From the NCBI GenBank assembly GCA_018652955.1, contig JABIBA010000013.1:164253-228252 (forward strand): a stretch of DNA of 64,000 nucleotides. The letters run 5' to 3'. Every line of letters begins with the position of its first letter. The stretch's first letter is position 1. The stretch comes from Candidatus Peribacter sp. (GTDB lineage Bacteria; Patescibacteriota; Gracilibacteria; Peribacterales; Peribacteraceae). Positions 1-50,998 of the stretch are shown one piece after another. The notes beneath the pieces were generated by a model that saw only the letters and a program-made list of their open reading frames with translations, was not told the origin of the DNA and did not search any database. Position numbers and translations under genes: made by a program.

Positions 1-1175
1 TTGCAGGAGCTGGATCTCGCTACGAGCAAGAGCACGAGCGAGGAATCTCTCACTTCCTTGAGCACATGTTCTTTAAGGGAGGAGATCGTTATAAAAACAC
101 CAAAGAGGTGAGTGTGGCTATTGATGGAGTTGGTGGAGAATTTAATGCATTTACCGGAAAAGAATATGCAGGGTATTACGTTAAAGTTGCTGCGGAGAAT
201 ATCGATCTTGGATGTGATGTTATTGGTGACATGCTTTGCAACGCGTCTTTCCCTCAGGAGGAGATAGAAAAAGAACGTGGTGTGATTATTGAGGAAGATC
301 GTATGTACCAAGACACACCAATGTACCGAGCAGGTTGGGACTTTGAAGAATTGATCTTCGGAGATGTACCTCTAGGTTGGGATACGATTGGTACGCACAA
401 AGTTATTAACTCCGTACAGCAAGAAGATTTCCAGAAGCATAAAGATCGTCTCTACACTCCTGACAACCTCGTTATTACATTTGCAGGAAAGATTGACGAC
501 GGCCAAGCAATTGATCTTGGAGAGAAGTACTTTGGAACTATTGGTGGTAAAAAAGATGGTGACTTTGCACCACTCGAAAAATATGGATCTGACAAAGTAT
601 TCTTGCGTTCAAAAAAGACAGAGCAGTCTCACCTTGTGATTGGAGTTCCTGGAGTGAGCTCTCAAGACCCACGTCACTTTACCCACAAGTTGCTTGGAAT
701 TATCCTTGGTGGAAACATGAGCAGCCGAATGTTCTTAAACATTCGTGAGGCTAAGGGTATGTGTTATTACATCGATACGGATGCAGATTACTACCTCGAT
801 GCAGGTGCACTTAGCACTAGAGCTGGTATCGACCAGTCACGACTCAATGAAGCGATCAAACTTATTATTAATGAGTACGACAAAGTCGTAGAAGGAGGAG
901 TAGAAGAAGAAGAGGTAGCGCGTGCTAAGTCTTATATGAAGGGATCTATGATTCTTGGATTAGAAGACAGTGAAGAGCTCGCACACTTCTATGGAAAGCA
1001 GAAACTTCTCTATCCAAACATTCGTGATGTAGAGGATTACATCAAAGAGATCGAAAGTGTAAGCAAAGAAGGAATCGACCAGCTTGCCAAAGAACTCTTT
1101 GCCCACGAAAACCTTCGCCTTTCTGTTATCGGAAACACTGATGACAAGTCAGGACTTGAATCACTACTCGTATAA
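1..1175 (+). CDS. M16 (pitrilysin/insulinase-type) zinc peptidase, 5' end cut by window edge
   Basis: Frame is open from nt 3. Translation AGAGSRYEQEHERGISHFLEHMFFKGG carries the inverted zinc motif HxxEH (HFLEH). ORF 66..1175 is the in-window remainder. Confidence 0.85.
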   Translation, partial: AGAGSRYEQEHERGISHFLEHMFFKGGDRYKNTKEVSVAIDGVGGEFNAFTGKEYAGYYVKVAAENIDLGCDVIGDMLCNASFPQEEIEKERGVIIEEDRMYQDTPMYRAGWDFEELIFGDVPLGWDTIGTHKVINSVQQEDFQKHKDRLYTPDNLVITFAGKIDDGQAIDLGEKYFGTIGGKKDGDFAPLEKYGSDKVFLRSKKTEQSHLVIGVPGVSSQDPRHFTHKLLGIILGGNMSSRMFLNIREAKGMCYYIDTDADYYLDAGALSTRAGIDQSRLNEAIKLIINEYDKVVEGGVEEEEVARAKSYMKGSMILGLEDSEELAHFYGKQKLLYPNIRDVEDYIKEIESVSKEGIDQLAKELFAHENLRLSVIGNTDDKSGLESLLV

Positions 1176-4408: not shown

Positions 4409-5720
4409 TATTATTCTTGGTATTTTGTGTGCAAGCGTATCGCTTCCGAGTCTTGCAAACGCAGCTCCGTACTATCCTGAGCTTCTCTTCCGACATGATC
4501 ATCATCTATTTACCTTAAGACCAGGTGACTATCCTGCATGGCGCAAGACTACAGAGGTATGGGCGTATCGTGGGACAGAGATAACGCCACCACAAGCATT
4601 GCGTGTCGACGGAGATCACATTCCAAGTCTTCCAGAAGGAGTAACTAGATCTTTGCGCAACGTATGGAGTAGTGACGCAATAGAAGCAACCATCGCATCG
4701 CAGATTTCTAGTGTGATCGATAGGCCTCGCGGAGAAGTAACGATGCGCAGAGAGGACGGTGCTATTACGTTTGAAGGAGTAGGATTCTTAGGAAAAGAGG
4801 TGGATACAGCACGAACTGCACAGCTTGTAATAGATGCGCTTGAGCGTGGAGTTACCGATATTCATCTTAAGGTCACAGAGCAACAACCTATTATTCATGT
4901 GCTTGATCCAGACTTACAAGATAGTGGTATTCGCGAAGTGATTGCGATCGGCGAATCCATCTTTACGAGATCTGCACTTGCGAGACGTCATAATATTAAA
5001 GCAGGACTTGATAAATTTAACGGTCATCACATACCACAAGGCGAAACGTTTTCATTTAATGAAGTACTAGGCCCTGTAAATGCGCAGACAGGATACGTTA
5101 AAGAGTTAGTAATCTTGGGAGATAAAACATTACCAGACTTTGGTGGGGGTCTCTGTCAGGTGAGTACGACGGCCTATAGAGGTATCTGGGAGTATGGATA
5201 TCCTATTGCAGACCGTAGGAATCATAGCTTTGCCGTGCAGTACTACGCACCACAAGGAACAGATGCAACGATCTATCCCCCGTATACAGATATGAAGTTC
5301 GTAAACGATGGACCGAGTGACATCGTGATTCAAACACATGCAGAAGGAGACCGCGCGTTCTTTATTTACTACGGAATGCGTGACGAGCGTGAAGTAGAGA
5401 TTATCGGACCGTATGTCTGGGATAGGCGCGACCCTCCGCCAGATCGTATAGAGCACACTACAGATATTCCTCCGGGAACAGAGCGTATCGCAGGAAAGGC
5501 AGTTCCCGGTATGCAGTCTGCTTGGTTTCGCGTTACAAGAGATGAGAATGGCATAGAAGATATCGAACCGTTTTATTCGTATTACGAAGCGCGGCCGAAC
5601 TTTACACAGATTGGTTCGTATCCAGAACCGATTGCGCCTGTAACAGGACTCGACAAAGAAGACCTGCTCGATAGTAGGCAGAAGCGTCTTACAAAGCGGA
5701 GGCGCTCCTCACGTCGTTAA
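4395..5720 (+). CDS. VanW-domain protein, membrane-anchored/secreted
   Basis: Signal/anchor MKGLSIILGILCASVSLPSLANA. VanW blocks GETFSFNEVLGPV and GGGLCQVSTTAYRG. Start set to ATG 4395 (ORF opens at 4374). Confidence 0.8.
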   Translation: MKGLSIILGILCASVSLPSLANAAPYYPELLFRHDHHLFTLRPGDYPAWRKTTEVWAYRGTEITPPQALRVDGDHIPSLPEGVTRSLRNVWSSDAIEATIASQISSVIDRPRGEVTMRREDGAITFEGVGFLGKEVDTARTAQLVIDALERGVTDIHLKVTEQQPIIHVLDPDLQDSGIREVIAIGESIFTRSALARRHNIKAGLDKFNGHHIPQGETFSFNEVLGPVNAQTGYVKELVILGDKTLPDFGGGLCQVSTTAYRGIWEYGYPIADRRNHSFAVQYYAPQGTDATIYPPYTDMKFVNDGPSDIVIQTHAEGDRAFFIYYGMRDEREVEIIGPYVWDRRDPPPDRIEHTTDIPPGTERIAGKAVPGMQSAWFRVTRDENGIEDIEPFYSYYEARPNFTQIGSYPEPIAPVTGLDKEDLLDSRQKRLTKRRRSSRR

Positions 5721-6339
5721 TAACAGTTCCCGCCTTTAAAGGTCTTGAGCTTATTTCTGATAGCAAGGTTGCACAGAGGCCCGAAAATAACTTTCGTTCT
5801 TGATCTGAAAGTTCTGCAAGCTGATCCCATTTTTCAAGCGAGGATAGTGTGAGAAATGTTTTCTGTGCACTGGAACAGTTCGAAAAATATGCATTCTCTG
5901 CATCGGGTAGCATTCCTAAAATCTTAAGTAGTCGAATCGTAAATGGTAGGACGGCATGTTCTGGGTGGTCGCTGCATCGCTGTAGAAAATGGAGAGTAGC
6001 TTCAAATAAATCTTTCATTGGTTCCTCGTCGTGCAGTGTATTTAGCAGAAGCTCCATTCCTTGTTGTGCACTTAAAAATGCTGAGATGTCTCTGCAATCA
6101 AACGTTGATACTTTTTGCACATCAGAGACCATAAATCCTGCAGATCCTTCTCGTGCTTGGAGTTTTACGTGTTGCATTGGAAGTAGTGATCCACCCATTT
6201 TACTACCGAGCTTGCGCACACTGCGTGCTCTGGCGGCAATTTTCCCTCGCTCTTTTGTAAACAGAATACAAAAGCGATCTGCTTCACCAACATCATGCGT
6301 ATTGAGGATGATCGCTTCTAGGGAAATAGTATTTCCCAT
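5689..6339 (-). CDS. recO: DNA repair protein RecO
   Basis: N-terminal OB-fold block LEAIILNTHDVGEADRFCILFTKERGKIAARARSVRK. Start set at internal ATG 6339, directly after the ftsX stop (6342). Confidence 0.8.
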   Translation of the reverse strand: MGNTISLEAIILNTHDVGEADRFCILFTKERGKIAARARSVRKLGSKMGGSLLPMQHVKLQAREGSAGFMVSDVQKVSTFDCRDISAFLSAQQGMELLLNTLHDEEPMKDLFEATLHFLQRCSDHPEHAVLPFTIRLLKILGMLPDAENAYFSNCSSAQKTFLTLSSLEKWDQLAELSDQERKLFSGLCATLLSEISSRPLKAGTVINDVRSASAL

Positions 6340-22185: not shown

Positions 22186-23136
22186 ATGAACCTTCTCGTT
22201 ACAGGAGCTGCCGGCTTTATCGGGTCACATTTCGTACTGCGACATGTGGCGAATCACCCAGAGGACACTATCGTGGTGCTCGATAAGCTTACGTATGCAG
22301 CGGACAAAAGCTTCCTTGATCCTGTCGAAGATGCGATTACTTTTGTCGAAGGAGACATTGCTGATCAGGCTTTAGTGACAAAGCTCATCGAAGATCACAG
22401 TATTGATACTGTGGTGAACTTCGCGGCTGAATCGCACGTAGATAATTCTATTTCTGATGCTACACCGTTTTTGCACACTAATGTCATTGGGACACAGGCG
22501 ATTATCGAAGTAATAAAAGAACATCCACATGTAAGACTAGTGCACATCTCAACAGACGAAGTGTATGGCGATGTTGGAGACGATGATCCTTCGTGCACCG
22601 TAGGCGACAAACTAAACCCTAGTAGTCCATACTCAGCTTCAAAAGCTGCTGCGGAGATGCTAGTACTGGCAGCTAGGCGTACGTTTGATGTGCAGGCAGT
22701 GATCACTCGGTGTACCAACAACTACGGACCACATCAGGCGGATGAGAAGTTTATTCCTACAGTTATTCGCAAAGCACTCGCAGATGAACCTATTCCTATT
22801 TACGGAACTGGAAAGAACAAGCGTGACTGGATTCATGTAGGGGATCACTGTGATGCAATAGAGACGATCTTAACAGTTGACTGGAAATCTGATCAGCGAC
22901 CTATTTTTAATGTTGGTATCGATAGAGAGTTTGAAAATATTGAAGTGGCAAAGATGATTTTACGCATTTTAGAAAAACCTGAAGACAGTATTGAATTTGT
23001 CGAAGATCGCAAAGGGCACGACTGGAGGTACGCAGTAGATTCATCTGAGACACGCACACTTGGTTGGGCTCCGAAGATGGAATTTGAAGAAGGTTTGCGT
23101 CAGACAATTGATTGGTACAAAGAGAAGTATAGTTAA
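22186..23136 (+). CDS. rfbB: dTDP-glucose 4,6-dehydratase
   Basis: GAAGFIGSHF Rossmann motif, YSASKAAAE (YxxxK), full-length SDR-extended similarity. Confidence 0.92.
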   Translation: MNLLVTGAAGFIGSHFVLRHVANHPEDTIVVLDKLTYAADKSFLDPVEDAITFVEGDIADQALVTKLIEDHSIDTVVNFAAESHVDNSISDATPFLHTNVIGTQAIIEVIKEHPHVRLVHISTDEVYGDVGDDDPSCTVGDKLNPSSPYSASKAAAEMLVLAARRTFDVQAVITRCTNNYGPHQADEKFIPTVIRKALADEPIPIYGTGKNKRDWIHVGDHCDAIETILTVDWKSDQRPIFNVGIDREFENIEVAKMILRILEKPEDSIEFVEDRKGHDWRYAVDSSETRTLGWAPKMEFEEGLRQTIDWYKEKYS

Positions 23137-46413: not shown

Positions 46414-46944
46414 ATGCCGATGACTATCAAAAGCCACCCTGGGGCCGATGCCGATTTTGCCACTGCGTACGATGAGTTCGCTGATGCAATTTTTCGTCAT
46501 TGTTGTTACAGATGCTTTGATAGAGAACGAGCAAAGGAATTGATGCAGGAGGTATTTATGAAAGCGTGGGATTATCTCGTTGCTGGGAAAGATATCGATA
46601 ACGTTCAAGCGTTCTTATATAGAACTGCCAATAATATTTTGGTTGATGAAGCACGCAGAGCAAAAAAGAGAACAGTAGTTTCGTATGAAGATATGGAAGA
46701 GAGCGGTTTTGAAATTGAAGGAGAGGACGGAAGAGATCAGGGGCGTGTCTTTGATGCGAAAGCTATTGCACAAGTGCTTCATGAATTAGAAGAGCCTTAC
46801 AGAGCTGCCATTATCATGCGGTACATAGATGAGTTATCTCCTAAAGAGATAGCAGAGCTCTTAAATGAAACTGCCAATGTTGTTTCTGTTCGCCTTAATA
46901 GAGGCATGAAAATGTTACGTACGATTCTTGCGACCTATGGATAA
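46414..46944 (+). CDS. ECF-type RNA polymerase sigma-70 family factor
   Basis: Region 2 (AKELMQEVFMKAWDYL) and region 4 HTH (LSPKEIAELLNETANVVSVRLNRGMKML). Confidence 0.88.
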   Translation: MPMTIKSHPGADADFATAYDEFADAIFRHCCYRCFDRERAKELMQEVFMKAWDYLVAGKDIDNVQAFLYRTANNILVDEARRAKKRTVVSYEDMEESGFEIEGEDGRDQGRVFDAKAIAQVLHELEEPYRAAIIMRYIDELSPKEIAELLNETANVVSVRLNRGMKMLRTILATYG

Positions 46945-47875
46945 ACTTACCAAGCAATTCTTCGGCGATGCAAAGCGTATGCAACTCTCCTCTCAGGAGA
47001 AGGCACTGCTATGGCAGGGGATCTCTACCTTCGCAAGTGCAAAGCAGATCAGTTTAAACTCGCTCGAAAAAGCAGAAGGCTTTGAGGCGATTGCCGCACA
47101 CATGCGTAAGAATCCACTAGAAGAGACTGCGACTGTAGCACTGTTTAGCTGGATGCATTTCCATAAGCTAACAGCCAGTGTTCTTATTGCTCTTATTATT
47201 GTTGGAGGAGGTGGAGGTGGTGTGGCATATGCTTCACAGGCAGCAGTTCCTGGGGATACGCTTTATTCTATAAAGGTTGATGTTACTGAGCCGCTAATAG
47301 ATGCAGCACTTTCTTTTGATCCTGAGCGAAGGGCAGAGTGGGGAAGGCGTAGAATTAAGCGTCGCTTAAAAGAAGTCGAACATCTTTCTTCTACAGAAGA
47401 GTTCACTCCCGATAGACGTGCACGTTTGGAGGAGCGCATAGAATATCGTATGGCAAAACTGCAGGAGCATCTGGATCGTGTCCCAGAGGATCACCGTGTT
47501 GTCATGCAAGATCGTGTGGATGATGTGATGATGCGGCATCAAGAATTTCTTATAAAGATAGAGGATGGAGCGGTGAGCATAGAAGAAGTACGGGCATTTA
47601 ATGATCATGTTGGGGGAGTACGCAATCGTGCACGTGAGAAGTGGGAGAGGAAAGCTCCACCACCTATGATAAATCGTGAGCATGTACCAGAAGAGATTCG
47701 CAAAAAAAGAGAAGAATTGGGGCGTCCAATAGACCGAATGCCACCTCCTCACGAGAGGAAACTGGACCGACTCGATAGTAAATTGCCCCTAAAACACCCA
47801 TTGCGCAAGGGCAGAGATGCACAGGGTGAACGTGAAAAAGCACCTCGACCACCTCGTCAGGGGCAGCATCGATAA
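46937..47875 (+). CDS. single-pass membrane protein, putative anti-sigma factor
   Basis: Overlaps the sigma gene stop. Cytoplasmic N-terminus, TM LIALIIVGGGGGGVAYA, then an extracytoplasmic helical/charged domain starting PGDTLYSIKVDV. Role inferred from position. Confidence 0.5.
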   Translation: MDKLTKQFFGDAKRMQLSSQEKALLWQGISTFASAKQISLNSLEKAEGFEAIAAHMRKNPLEETATVALFSWMHFHKLTASVLIALIIVGGGGGGVAYASQAAVPGDTLYSIKVDVTEPLIDAALSFDPERRAEWGRRRIKRRLKEVEHLSSTEEFTPDRRARLEERIEYRMAKLQEHLDRVPEDHRVVMQDRVDDVMMRHQEFLIKIEDGAVSIEEVRAFNDHVGGVRNRAREKWERKAPPPMINREHVPEEIRKKREELGRPIDRMPPPHERKLDRLDSKLPLKHPLRKGRDAQGEREKAPRPPRQGQHR

Positions 47876-48010
47876 AATAGGAGATATCCGCTATGCAAAG
47901 GGCAAAAGTCTTTGTTAAATCTTCTGTATTTTTAGGCCCCTTGCTGAAACACTTAATTCTGTCAATTGGCTTTCTGCATAAAAAAACTGTACTAATTTGC
48001 CAATTTAGAC

Positions 48011-48040
48011 TTGCGGGGTTGACTGAATTATCCGTAGAAT
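48011..48040 (+). promoter_or_regulatory. candidate promoter TTGCGG-18nt-TAGAAT upstream of the histone-fold ORF
   Basis: ttgcgg 48011-48016, tagaat 48035-48040. ATG is 33 nt downstream. Confidence 0.3.
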
Positions 48041-48073
48041 TCGGTTCGTTATTACTTCCTACCACTCCTACTT

Positions 48074-48244
48074 ATGAGTTACGTAGTAGCTTCCAAGCTC
48101 AAAGAGCTAGTTAAGAAGCACGGTATGATGTCTTCTGGTGACCTCTCAGACGCAGTTTCTGCAAGTCTTGAGGCATCTGTTGCTAAGGCATGTGACCGCG
48201 CAAAGGCTAACGGTCGTAAGACTGTTCGCTCTGAGGACCTCTAG
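48074..48244 (+). CDS. 56-aa histone-fold-like protein (bacterial histone / DUF1931-like candidate); absent from ORF track (<60 aa)
   Basis: ATG 48074 to TAG 48242-48244 encodes MSYVVASKLKELVKKHGMMSSGDLSDAVSASLEASVAKACDRAKANGRKTVRSEDL. Helix-loop-long helix-RKT loop pattern. The C-terminus aligns with archaeal HMfB ..KLARHAGRKTIKAEDI. Flanked by a promoter-like element and a terminator. Confidence 0.6.
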   Translation: MSYVVASKLKELVKKHGMMSSGDLSDAVSASLEASVAKACDRAKANGRKTVRSEDL

Positions 48245-48263
48245 TCCACTTACACAGCGAATC

Positions 48264-48290
48264 AAAAGGACTCCTTTGGGAGTCTTTTTT
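48264..48290. terminator. bidirectional rho-independent terminator between histone-fold ORF and prfB
   Basis: AAAA-GACTCC-tttg-GGAGTC-TTTTTT. 6-bp GC-rich stem (48269-74 / 48279-84) with A-run and T-run flanks. Confidence 0.5.
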
Positions 48291-48295
48291 GATTC

Positions 48296-49376
48296 CTATT
48301 TACTTCTCTTGAGTTCCGCATCAATGAATTGTTGAATGTCTCCGTCGAGTACGGCGTCTGTGTTTCCAGTCTCGATGTTTGTGCGTAAGTCTTTCACCAT
48401 CTGGTACGGGTGTAATACGTACGACCTAATCTGCTGACCGAAGTCTGCACTTTTGCTTGCACCTTTTAATCCTTCTTTTTGCTCAGCATCCTCTGAGCGC
48501 TTTTTTTCTAGCAGCATTGCTCGTAACATATTCATTGCACGTATTCTGTTTTGTTGTTGGCTGCGTTCACTTTGGCAGGCAACAGCAAGACCTGTTGGCT
48601 CATGGGTAATACGTACGGCACTGTCGGTCTTATTTACGTGCTGCCCTCCAGCTCCGGAAGCTCGGAAGGTATCGATGCGTAGGTCTTTCTCTTCTAGTTC
48701 TATTTCGGTTGTCTCGGTTATCTCGGGTAGAACTTCTACCAAGGCAAAGCTTGTCTGTCGGAGGTTCTTTGCATTAAATGGGGAGAGGCGAACGAGCCGA
48801 TGTGTACCACGCTCACACTGCAAAAATCCGAAGGCGAATTCTCCTTGGATATGAATCGTTGCTGACTTGATACCAACTTCCTGCCCGTCTGTTTTTTCGA
48901 CAAGCGTTGCTTCCCAGCCTTGGCGTTCGCAGTACCGCAAATACATTCGCATGAGCATTGCAGCCCAGTCTTGTGCATCTGTTCCTCCTGCACCTCCACT
49001 GAGAGTGATGTAGGCATTGTTCATATCGAACTCACCACTTAAGTAGAGGCCGATCTCCACTTCTTTCCATGTGTTTTCTAGTGCTACGAATTCTTCTTCG
49101 AGAGCAGGTAAATCCTCTGCAGTTGATGCCTCTATCATTTCCAAGAGACCATCAGTCTCTGAGAGAAGGGTACTTACAGGTTCCCACTGCTTTTTTAGAC
49201 TTTTCAGTTTTGCAAAAAGCGCATTAGCAGAAGATTGATCGTCCCAGAGGTTTGGGTCTTGGGACTGCTTTTCTAATTCTTCTATGAGTTTTGGTATACC
49301 TCTTTCCTCAAAGACTGTCCTTCCCTGTGTTCAGCGCAGCTTGTAGTGCTGTGATTTTATTGAGTAGTTCTTCCAC
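48296..49376 (-). CDS. prfB: peptide chain release factor 2, requires programmed +1 frameshift
   Basis: ORF 48296..49144 carries SPF (RLSPFNA) and GGQ (SGAGGQHVNKTDSA). The N-terminal 22 codons (GTG 49376: MEELLNKITALQAALNTGKDSL) end at CTT TGA (49313-49308). Shifting +1 continues ..EERGIPKLIEELEKQSQDPNLWDDQ.. in frame with the long ORF. Exact start codon is uncertain. Confidence 0.88.
49307..49326 (-). other. prfB +1 frameshift site: AGGGAAGGA-cagt-CUU-UGA-G
   Basis: Minus-strand sequence agggaaggacagtctttgag. Slippery CUU followed by an in-frame UGA. A purine-rich SD-like element lies 4 nt upstream, as in the E. coli AGGGGG-uau-CUU-UGA-C site. Confidence 0.8.
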
Positions 49377-49541: not shown

Positions 49542-50126
49542 TTGAATACCCAACGTCACAGTTTCGGCGACATTGCAAGACGCACAGCGTTCTCGTTCTT
49601 TCTGTTTTCACTCGTGCTTACTGCACTCCTTGCACTCTCTTGGTATTTGCTTGTTCCTGAGCTTACGAGAGTGGAAATTGGCGGTACCGTGCGCGGTTTG
49701 CAAGAGCTTAAAGCGTACAAGACAGATCTCGAAGGTCAGATTCTTACTATGGAAGATCAGAGAGGATCTTTTCTTCTTCCGGTAAATCACGATCTTTATG
49801 AGAGACTAAAAGGACTCAAGGATGAACGACTCGTGTTCCAGAAGCTTCGGAAAGAAATCCGTCAGGTGATTGTCGATCTTATTCCAGGACGAACAGACAT
49901 CGTTGTGATTTCTGGATTCTACTTTGATGCCACAACAAACATAGGAGAGATTCGTGGAGAGGTTACTAATGTTGGACCTCGTTCTATGACAGTACTGGCA
50001 CAGTTTGTAGAGGACATCGGTGCTATTGATATGGTAACGAATGTAGAAACATCAAGGTACACAAGACAAGAAGGTGAGAACGGATCGTTCTATTCACCAT
50101 TTACTTTACGTATTTCAGTCCGATGA
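49542..50126 (+). CDS. bitopic membrane protein, hypothetical (194 aa)
   Basis: N-terminal TM FSFFLFSLVLTALLALSWYLLV, then a coiled-coil-like segment. TTG start, with no in-frame ATG before the TM. TATAAT at 49514-49519 upstream. Confidence 0.4.
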   Translation: MNTQRHSFGDIARRTAFSFFLFSLVLTALLALSWYLLVPELTRVEIGGTVRGLQELKAYKTDLEGQILTMEDQRGSFLLPVNHDLYERLKGLKDERLVFQKLRKEIRQVIVDLIPGRTDIVVISGFYFDATTNIGEIRGEVTNVGPRSMTVLAQFVEDIGAIDMVTNVETSRYTRQEGENGSFYSPFTLRISVR

Positions 50127-50998
50127 TAAGTTCTGCATTCAAACGTTTGGCTGCACTTCATCCTATCCTTCTTTTTGGAACAGGATCTGGACTCATGGTG
50201 ATTGCTGGCATGTTGATGTACGCACATATCCAGACAATTATTCAGGTGAGAGATGTCTCTGTTCCGATTGTTGGACAGCTTCCACAAATGGAACGCAGGC
50301 TTGCAGCACTCACACAGCAGATTGAACTTACTGAGCTACACTCCGCAACGCGCATTGGTTCTCAGCAAGAAAAAGTAGAAGTGTATGCACTGCCAGAAGA
50401 GACAAATGTAAGTCGCGTCGTTGCGACATTCGAAGTGATTCGTGATGTACTTACACGTGATGGCTTACTTGCTGAGATGTCTAATCTTGATATTTCTGAA
50501 CCTGTAAAAAGAGATGATGGATCTACTTCTCGAACTGTATCTGTAGAGTTTGCCGCTCACGAAGATGGTTTAAAAACCATTATGCTTCTCGTACAACTCT
50601 CTGGTCTTTTGACTGTCGGTGATGTGTTGACTGAAGAAGAGGTAGAATTACTAGTGGATCGTATTGAACAAGAGAACCCATCTGGAATCGTAGCGCTCGA
50701 GCAGTTTTTGACTGCAGATCTATTGCGATATGCAGAGAACTCGAAGACGTATGAAGAGCAACTAAAGAGGTCATTTAGTTCGATGACTTTCTTAAACTTG
50801 TTTGAAAATGTTCTACGTACTTCTCTTTTGCGTGATGTAAAATCACTCCTTCGCAGTGACTTAGGAGAGATTCTTAGTGGATATAAATTGTGGCCATTAC
50901 AGCTTATGGCTATCGAAGAAGTTTCTATGAAGCCTGGGGATGCCCCAAAGTGGCAGAGGTTGGGACTGACATTATTAGTGTTTAGCGAGGAATCTTAA
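50123..50998 (+). CDS. bitopic membrane protein, hypothetical (291 aa)
   Basis: ATGA overlap with the upstream ORF. N-terminal TM ILLFGTGSGLMVIAGMLMYA, then a coiled-coil-like segment and a globular domain. Confidence 0.45.
   Translation: MISSAFKRLAALHPILLFGTGSGLMVIAGMLMYAHIQTIIQVRDVSVPIVGQLPQMERRLAALTQQIELTELHSATRIGSQQEKVEVYALPEETNVSRVVATFEVIRDVLTRDGLLAEMSNLDISEPVKRDDGSTSRTVSVEFAAHEDGLKTIMLLVQLSGLLTVGDVLTEEEVELLVDRIEQENPSGIVALEQFLTADLLRYAENSKTYEEQLKRSFSSMTFLNLFENVLRTSLLRDVKSLLRSDLGEILSGYKLWPLQLMAIEEVSMKPGDAPKWQRLGLTLLVFSEES

Follow-up and report, generated by a model that had tools for sequence, protein, structure and literature searches.

Can the DNA of a Candidate Phyla Radiation (CPR) bacterium be organised by a histone, and if so, by which kind? 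This question is raised by a 56-codon open reading frame (ORF) in a 64-kb stretch of a Candidatus Peribacter sp. genome (contig JABIBA010000013.1, positions 164,253 to 228,252; hereafter the window), for which a first-pass annotation, made from the DNA letters alone, had proposed a bacterial histone expressed from its own transcription unit. Bacterial histones have been accepted as real chromatin proteins only in 2023–2025, and to our knowledge only two have been studied in detail, namely the dimeric, DNA-bending HBb and the tetrameric, DNA-wrapping HLp. Members of the CPR class Peribacteria, to which this Peregrinibacteria genome belongs, are ultra-small, probably symbiotic and uncultivated. 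Here, we describe the ORF as a real gene whose product is, according to its predicted structure, an α3-truncated histone and probably belongs to the face-to-face (FtF) sub-type, most resembling HLp of Leptospira.

Translation of the frame from its ATG to its TAG (Table 1) gave MSYVVASKLKELVKKHGMMSSGDLSDAVSASLEASVAKACDRAKANGRKTVRSEDL, exactly the protein that the first-pass annotation had reported. The predicted product has a mass of 5.9 kDa and an isoelectric point (pI) of 9.3 and carries no extra domain; its gene is present as a single copy within the window. The ORF had been presented as unannotated, which holds only for the underlying ORF list, because this list stopped at 60 amino acids (aa). 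Over 20 kb, the window matches contig JABJJY010000004.1 from a Peregrinibacteria metagenome-assembled genome (MAG; GCA_018660645.1) with 100% identity, and likewise an ENA assembly; the 56-aa gene is already called in both public assemblies. Some homologues bear the names “histone H3/H4” (JGI) or “DUF1931 family protein” (NCBI).

A search of 5.8 billion proteins yielded 89 homologous clusters, nearly all exactly 56 aa long and 55–96% identical, and those with a named organism belong to Candidatus Peribacteraceae or Peregrinibacteria. Scanning one genome per GTDB species revealed at least 522 encoding loci, the best ~45 of which are Peribacteria or Peregrinibacteria MAGs. An intact 56-codon ORF from ATG to stop, beginning with MSYVVAS, was found in 41 loci, two of them being the window’s own contig. 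Based on the Nei-Gojobori method, the ratio of nonsynonymous to synonymous substitution rates (dN/dS) between the window gene and its three nearest informative relatives was 0.21, 0.10 and 0.13, and 344 unsaturated pairs showed a median of 0.23 and a maximum of 0.57. Column entropies of 33/24/74 at codon positions 1/2/3 place the variation mostly at third positions and reveal coding periodicity.

A short ORF of this kind, which lies below the usual gene-calling cut-offs and lacks an upstream Shine-Dalgarno motif, might have been a chance frame, with one of the two overlapping ORFs (47893..48114 or 48138..48335) as the real gene. However, the 89 clusters of nearly uniform length, the dN/dS values well under 1 and the concentration of changes at third codon positions all contradict such an origin. 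In addition, the frame common to both overlapping ORFs contains stops in 40/40 orthologous loci, which confirms the earlier suspicion that they are spurious, and the Shine-Dalgarno motif is missing genome-wide (54/58 genes). The chance-frame explanation, which retains practically no probability, is already refuted: the 56-codon ORF is a real, conserved gene, intact and under purifying selection across ~40 related genomes.

Assigning the product to a protein family is less straightforward with curated libraries than with solved structures. With the single sequence as query, Pfam CBFD_NFYB_HMF (PF00808) reached 14.9 bits (gathering cut-off 21.4; E 0.033) over residues 27–56 only, Pfam DUF1931 (PF09123) 13.7 bits (cut-off 21.8) over positions 20–53 of a 138-position model, and NCBIfam archaea_histone 16.5 bits (cut-off 50); DUF5805 gave a sub-threshold match as well. 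These scores weigh against a histone assignment and come close to the outcome, namely no significant hit to the histone-fold or DUF1931 models, that the first-pass annotation had itself named as speaking against its proposal. As the curated-library scans remained below threshold, family membership rests on comparison with solved structures and on the family profile. In phmmer searches against the PDB, the single sequence matched HBb of Bdellovibrio bacteriovorus (Bd0055; 8FVX, 8CMP) with E 3.7e-7, HLp of Leptospira perolatii (9QT0) with E 8.2e-7 and the archaeal HTkC of Thermococcus kodakarensis (9F2C) with E 4.3e-5, in each case over the full length. With the family profile, the E-values fell to 5.7e-15 (HLp), 1.4e-12 (HBb) and 3.4e-12 (HTkC), and the archaeal histones HMk (4.5e-4) and HMfA (3e-3) were matched as well. 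The superfamily is large, with 1,688 clusters (at 50% identity) matched by the family profile at E ≤1e-3.

An AlphaFold2 model built from a 72-sequence alignment (mean predicted local distance difference test score of 94.6) shows the helix-loop-long helix-loop-one-turn helix arrangement of a histone, with α1 at residues 6–15, α2 at 24–45 and a single-turn α3 at 53–55, directly before the end of the protein at residue 56. Foldseek against the PDB placed HLp first (template modelling (TM) score 0.95, root-mean-square deviation 0.7 Å over all 56 residues), followed by HBb (TM 0.90) and HTkC (TM 0.89). All 50 matches listed were histone-fold proteins, the best nine with TM scores of 0.87–0.95. The RxTxxxxD motif is formed by R48, T50 and D55, which are invariant in the 72 aligned homologues and align with R55/T57/D62 of HLp and R51/T53/D58 of HBb. 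Histones of the α3-truncated family are characterised by an α3 of 3–4 residues and an α2 shorter than that of nucleosomal histones (Schwab et al. 2024), and α2 of HLp is one turn shorter than α2 of HMfB (Hu et al. 2025, PMC12701072). The short α3 and the shortened α2 of the model agree with this definition. Taken together with the full-length matches, the modelled structure upholds the proposed histone fold and makes the protein an α3-truncated histone in the sense of Schwab et al. 2024.

The resemblance of its C-terminal half to archaeal histones, which had been pointed out before, was recovered both by the family profile (HMfA, as above) and by superposition (TM 0.66–0.70). HMfA and HMfB have the histone fold and RxTxxxxD in common with the protein described here; in contrast, their α3 spans ~10 residues, compared to a single turn, and their α2 is longer. 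A hypernucleosome would not be expected, because the model offers no four-helix-bundle tetramer interface. The suggested likeness to DUF1931 holds at the level of the truncated histone-fold superfamily, to which DUF1931 pseudodimers such as Aquifex Aq_328 also belong. It does not extend to the family itself: PF09123 represents two histone folds in one chain of 138 residues, whereas the protein here is a single 56-aa fold that falls short of the DUF1931 cut-off, and DUF1931 forms a separate cluster in the cluster map of Hu et al. 2025 (PMC12701072).

Within the α3-truncated family, the question of sub-type can be approached via the residues at the dimer-dimer interface. FtF histones are homotetramers in which two dimers meet face to face; their sequence logo is marked by K16, R48, N52, R54, T56 and D61, and the two dimers touch through the FtF Arg and Asn, the Arg binding the C-terminal carboxylate of the opposite dimer (Schwab et al. 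2024). The equivalent residues of the HLp tetramer interface are R49, N53 and R55 (Hu et al. 2025, PMC12701072), which correspond to R42, N46 and R48 in the window protein. At a constant offset of 6, all logo positions are found here as K10, R42, N46, R48, T50 and D55, and all are invariant in the alignment. Positions 42/46 are R/N in 90/90 Peribacteria sequences, in 83/83 members of the HLp family and in 20/20 relatives from DPANN archaea. The distance between the C-terminus and the Asp of the “RD clamp” (here R48 and D55, by homology) follows the same division: one residue follows this Asp in 89/90, 82/83 and 20/20 sequences, respectively, and the window protein likewise ends with D55-L56. 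In the HBb family, which like the HLp family was gathered in a search of its own, positions 42/46 are S, A or N/D (120/120) and six residues follow the clamp Asp (120/120). These sequence features suggest that the protein is probably of the FtF sub-type and most similar to Leptospira HLp. Of the two resemblances that had been proposed, to the Leptospira and to the Bdellovibrio histones, the former therefore stands at the level of the FtF type, while the dimer type of Bdellovibrio probably does not apply.

Membership in the “bacterial dimer” class, in which the protein would stay dimeric like HBb/Bd0055 and condense DNA through sharp bends or by attaching end-on, was weighed against this assignment. 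With the single sequence, HBb is in fact the top PDB match (33.4 vs 32.4 bits for HLp), loop L2 reads G-R-K-T as in HBb and nucleosomal histones instead of N-K-R-T-T as in HLp, and counterparts are present for the HBb DNA-contact residues K12, K52, T53 and R57. However, the FtF Arg and Asn are missing from the bacterial dimers, a class exclusive to bacteria (Schwab et al. 2024), whereas both residues are present and invariant here, the C-terminal extension of the HBb type is absent and close relatives occur in archaea. The family profile also favours HLp over HBb (58.9 vs 51.3 bits), in line with the TM scores given above. Scored against family-specific hidden Markov models (HMMs), the Peribacteria sequences reached median values of 87 bits for the archaeal relatives, 52.4 for the HLp family and 35.2 for the HBb family, and the HLp-family HMM outscored the HBb-family HMM in 87/90 sequences; these cross-scores are biased, because the HBb-family HMM derives from very similar, narrowly sampled sequences and the archaeal set was found with Peribacteria-derived patterns. 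Overall, we regard a dimeric, HBb-like protein as unlikely.

Several further observations count against an HLp-like FtF tetramer. Besides the biased cross-scores, HLp S52, T61 and K54 are replaced by A45, E54 and G47, the first two of these being interface residues of HLp. The FtF signature is also not strictly diagnostic, since HTkC is tetrameric despite a Glu at the position of Asn46. Finally, in fused doublets of two histone folds we asked if the first half, which has no free C-terminus, loses the interface Arg: Arg42 is kept in 24/34 first and 27/34 second halves, so that no clear asymmetry emerges, and loss from the first half only is confined to Peribacteria-type doublets, all from one clade.

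The DNA-binding surface agrees with that of HLp. In HLp, 52% of the DNA-binding energy comes from five residues (R59, K21, K15, S14 and K17; Hu et al. 2025, PMC12701072), and all are identical here (R52, K14, K8, S7 and K10) and invariant or at least 90% conserved. The HLp crystal contacts A13, G29 and T57 are likewise identical (A6, G22 and T50), and T27 is replaced by S20. Both HLp and HTkC form ring-like tetramers, and HLp wraps ~60 bp, whereas the HBb dimer bends DNA; when produced in E. coli, HLp also compacts the nucleoid. As fold, FtF signature and DNA-contact conservation all match HLp, we consider it likely, by homology to HLp and HTkC, that the protein forms an FtF tetramer like that of HLp, which would bind the backbone of DNA irrespective of sequence and wrap the DNA. 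In this arrangement, two monomers would pair head-to-tail via α2, each with an R48-D55 salt bridge as its RD clamp, and two such dimers would join via the C-terminus of α2, L2 and α3 into a ring-like tetramer, in which Arg42 would pair with the carboxylate of the terminal Leu56', as in Haloferax D4GZE0 and HLp, and Asn46 with Arg48'. The phosphate backbone would be contacted without sequence specificity by the N-terminus of α1 (A6-S7-K8, K10, K14), by loop L1 (S20, G22) and by L2 (K49, T50, R52), with ~60 bp of DNA wrapped around the tetramer and bridging as a possible second mode. By the same analogy, and with less confidence than for the tetramer, the protein may be an abundant nucleoid-associated protein in its small-genome hosts.

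Compared to its closest structural relative, the protein nevertheless shows clear differences. Identity to HLp (9QT0/9QT1/9QT2) is only ~39%, the L2 motif N-G-R-K-T leaves HLp K54 without a counterpart and adds K49 as an extra basic residue, and the seven N-terminal residues of HLp, disordered in the crystal, are absent. HLp also lies next to SMC and MAP in Leptospira, while the gene described here is found beside prfB in a CPR host. HBb (8FVX, 8FW7, 8CMP, 9EZZ, 9F0E), at ~40% identity, is likewise an α3-truncated singlet and has the G-R-K-T motif, the RD clamp and the α1 lysines in common with it; it differs in carrying Ser and Asp in place of Arg42 and Asn46. The archaeal FtF histones, namely HTkC, Haloferax D4GZE0 and the DPANN homologues, share signature residues and length with the window protein, and the HMM of the DPANN homologues gave the top cross-family score (87–91 bits). 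They belong to a different domain of life, and the DPANN genes carry canonical GGAGG ribosome-binding sites, compared to the pyrimidine-rich leader described below.

The most similar homologues that we recovered outside the Peribacteria are those of DPANN archaea, at 50–64% identity, as sampled with scan patterns that were Peribacteria-derived and thus biased. Their hosts are Micrarchaeota, Iainarchaeota, Undinarchaeota, Aenigmarchaeota and Woesearchaeota (11 loci). This sequence similarity suggests an exchange of histones between CPR bacteria and DPANN archaea. One further archaeal entry has to be set apart: contig NYYK01000002.1, attributed to “Methanobacteriota archaeon ARS80”, encodes the same histone as Ca. 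Peribacter sp. UBA2144, and the layout of histone, prfB and two further genes is the same as in Peribacteria. This contig is probably a Peribacteria sequence wrongly binned into an archaeal MAG.

In one Peribacteria sub-clade, a fused doublet of ~119 aa replaces the singlet (locus L070, positions 5442–5801, and eight further loci). Its layout is MSYVVASK...ANDRKTVRGSD, a linker of ~10 residues and ...ANDRKTVRxxDL, and only the first half has Ala in place of the interface Arg. The doublet gene is mostly located across prfB from the singlet position. Among the best matches in the representative library, doublets are likewise frequent.

The proposal that the gene forms its own transcription unit was examined by footprinting, for which the flanks of 39 distinct orthologous loci were aligned at the ATG. 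The promoter-like element TTGCGG-18-TAGAAT, which had been noted upstream of the ORF, is present and conserved (Table 1). A -35 element TTGC[AG]N was found in 36/39 upstream regions, a spacer of 16 or 18 nt in 37/39 and a -10 hexamer ending 30–35 nt before the ATG in 38/39. The hexamer reads TAGAAT in 26/39 regions and TAAAAT, TACAAT or similar in the others, and the overall architecture TTGC[AG]N-16/18-TA[GAC]AAT is conserved in 38/39. Sites of the form TTGNNN-16..18-TA[ACG]AAT are rare, with three in the 64-kb window, fewer than in shuffled sequence. A generic sigma-70 consensus scan of the window did not call the histone promoter, because its -35 hexamer matches the consensus at only 3/6 positions.

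Table 1. Coordinates of the histone gene, its putative control elements and neighbouring features in the window.
Feature	Position in window	Strand	Remarks
Octamer GTCAATTG, candidate regulator site	47961..47968	+	~48 nt before the -35 element, near -83 relative to the inferred start of transcription
-35-like hexamer TTGCGG	48011..48016	+	conserved in orthologues
-10 hexamer TAGAAT	48035..48040	+	18-nt spacer from the -35 element
5' leader, ~27 nt, pyrimidine-rich	48047..48073	+	start inferred from the -10 position
Histone coding sequence, 56 aa, α3-truncated by predicted structure, probably FtF type	48074..48244	+	TAG stop at 48242-48244 included
Bidirectional intrinsic terminator, A-run/GGACTCC-TTTG-GGAGTC hairpin/T-run	48262..48292	both	common to convergent prfB
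ECF-type sigma factor gene and gene of a 315-aa protein	46414-47875	+	17-nt overlap
prfB (release factor 2, RF2)	48296-49376	-	GTG start at 49376
prfB frameshift site	49313-49308	-	short frame ends CTT TGA G (49313-49307)
prfB internal Shine-Dalgarno-like GGGAAGGA	49325-49318	-	upstream of the shift site
Two genes without Pfam match (194 aa and 291 aa)	49542-50998	+	after prfB

Across the orthologues, positions -30 to -1 consist of 82% pyrimidines and 6% G and contain no Shine-Dalgarno motif, and the predicted folding of the leader is unremarkable (z -0.5). A leader free of this motif was considered as a peculiarity of the histone gene and rejected, as a Shine-Dalgarno-like core occurs in only 4/58 window genes. 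Pyrimidine-rich leaders also precede other genes of the window, including V/A-ATPase genes. Furthermore, several window genes (for example those starting at 22186, 28846 and 7897) show a TAGAAT/TATAAT box 7–12 nt before the ATG, a position that suggests leaderless mRNAs or mRNAs with very short leaders.

Downstream of the stop codon, the hairpin and T-run that had been described as a terminator fold with -16.7 kcal/mol (z -4.7) on the plus strand and -13.6 kcal/mol (z -5.3) on the minus strand, and a terminator scan called the hairpin on both strands. Inspected by eye, the orthologous loci that were listed show a GC hairpin and T-run past the stop codon. The conserved arrangement from promoter to terminator around the ORF supports the proposed separate transcription unit, from which a monocistronic mRNA would be produced.

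Upstream of this promoter, the octamer GTCAATTG is identical in 31 of the 39 distinct regions from Peribacteria, although its flanks show no conservation. It occurs in 32 copies at this position and in seven elsewhere in 392 kb of those loci, compared to 12.4 expected from base composition, and the copy upstream of the histone gene is the only one in the window. Its conservation marks it as a candidate operator for some regulator, and transcription of the histone gene is perhaps tuned by a factor binding to it. Alternatively, its minus strand reads TTGAC(A) and could represent a divergent -35 element. In terms of spacing, the octamer does not fit the IHF consensus.

This putative operator also bears on whether the protein acts on chromatin in general. 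A histone fold may equally serve in a low-abundance specific regulator or in a protein-protein interaction module, as is the case for TAFs and NF-Y, and Schwab et al. 2024 warn against assuming that every prokaryotic “histone” is a global genome organiser; the conserved octamer would fit such a role in that it suggests regulated rather than purely constitutive expression. Still, the backbone-contact residues of HLp and HBb are conserved, the protein is basic and devoid of extra domains, and both HBb and the Leptospira histones are abundant nucleoid proteins (Hocher et al. 2023, Schwab et al. 2024). Moreover, a conserved promoter and terminator are dedicated to the gene, which itself is kept across the recovered Peribacteria loci and is under purifying selection. 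We therefore judge a specialised, non-chromatin function to be quite improbable and retain the DNA-wrapping FtF tetramer as the likely form of the protein.

The histone gene, the convergent prfB and then two conserved genes follow each other in this order in most of the recovered Peribacteria loci. The order with prfB is kept even where the histones are only 46–60% identical, which indicates vertical inheritance within the class. The two genes beyond prfB are those without Pfam match listed in Table 1. On the other side, the window contains an extracytoplasmic function (ECF)-type sigma factor (Sigma70_r2, r4_2) and a 315-aa protein with a weak match to DUF5667, which is a probable anti-sigma partner of the former. 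A link of this pair to the histone was rejected, since both are adjacent to it only in the closest relatives. As a side observation, prfB shows a classic programmed +1 frameshift: the GTG opens a short frame that ends at the shift site, and the +1 frame continues into a 282-aa ORF. Public prfB calls of 280 or 333 aa leave this frameshift unmodelled.

To place the finding in the context of previous work, we compared it with published records of histone-fold proteins. Among the histone-fold proteins tabulated by Hocher et al. 2023 (Supplementary Table 1) are Ca. Peribacter riflensis ALM10226.1, Ca. Peribacter sp. UBA6535 and two CG sequences from Peregrinibacteria; the UBA6535 sequence is identical to the window protein at 53/56 positions and that of P. 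riflensis at 35/56. These entries go unmentioned in the main text of that study, in Schwab et al. 2024, in the HLp paper, in the Bacteriovorax chromatin paper, in a 2026 archaeal histone survey and in the original Peribacteria genome paper, and none of these papers was found to give a sub-type, structure or function for them; a mention elsewhere is possible. The remark that no such protein was known to be characterised in small-genome uncultivated lineages is accurate in so far as the orthologues appear without discussion or characterisation, but they had already been catalogued. The find correctly recovers a protein of a known family that had been catalogued but not characterised, and the advance is incremental, as both the kind of protein and its orthologues were on record. 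Added here are the probable FtF assignment, the strong similarity to DPANN histones (50–64% identity, as opposed to ~40% with HLp and HBb), the synteny across the class, the conserved promoter with its upstream octamer and the fused doublets of one Peribacteria sub-clade.

These results bear on chromatin in the CPR in several ways. A conserved, syntenic histone of apparent FtF type in a whole CPR class would extend histone-based DNA organisation to this reduced-genome radiation, and with 56 aa the protein represents a very compact member of its family for biochemical work. Its similarity to DPANN histones bears on the origin of FtF histones in bacteria, which could be ancient or could have come from archaea, and the conserved promoter and octamer may provide a handle on the regulation of a bacterial histone gene, a subject not seen to be treated in the papers examined. 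A more far-reaching picture, which we put forward tentatively and consider possible but doubtful, is that the Peribacteria chromosome is organised mainly by an archaeal-type FtF tetramer that was exchanged with co-occurring DPANN archaea, became fixed beside prfB, was fused into a doublet in one sub-clade and is controlled by a lineage-specific regulator binding to GTCAATTG. If true, this would be the first histone-based nucleoid with a dedicated control element in the Candidate Phyla Radiation.

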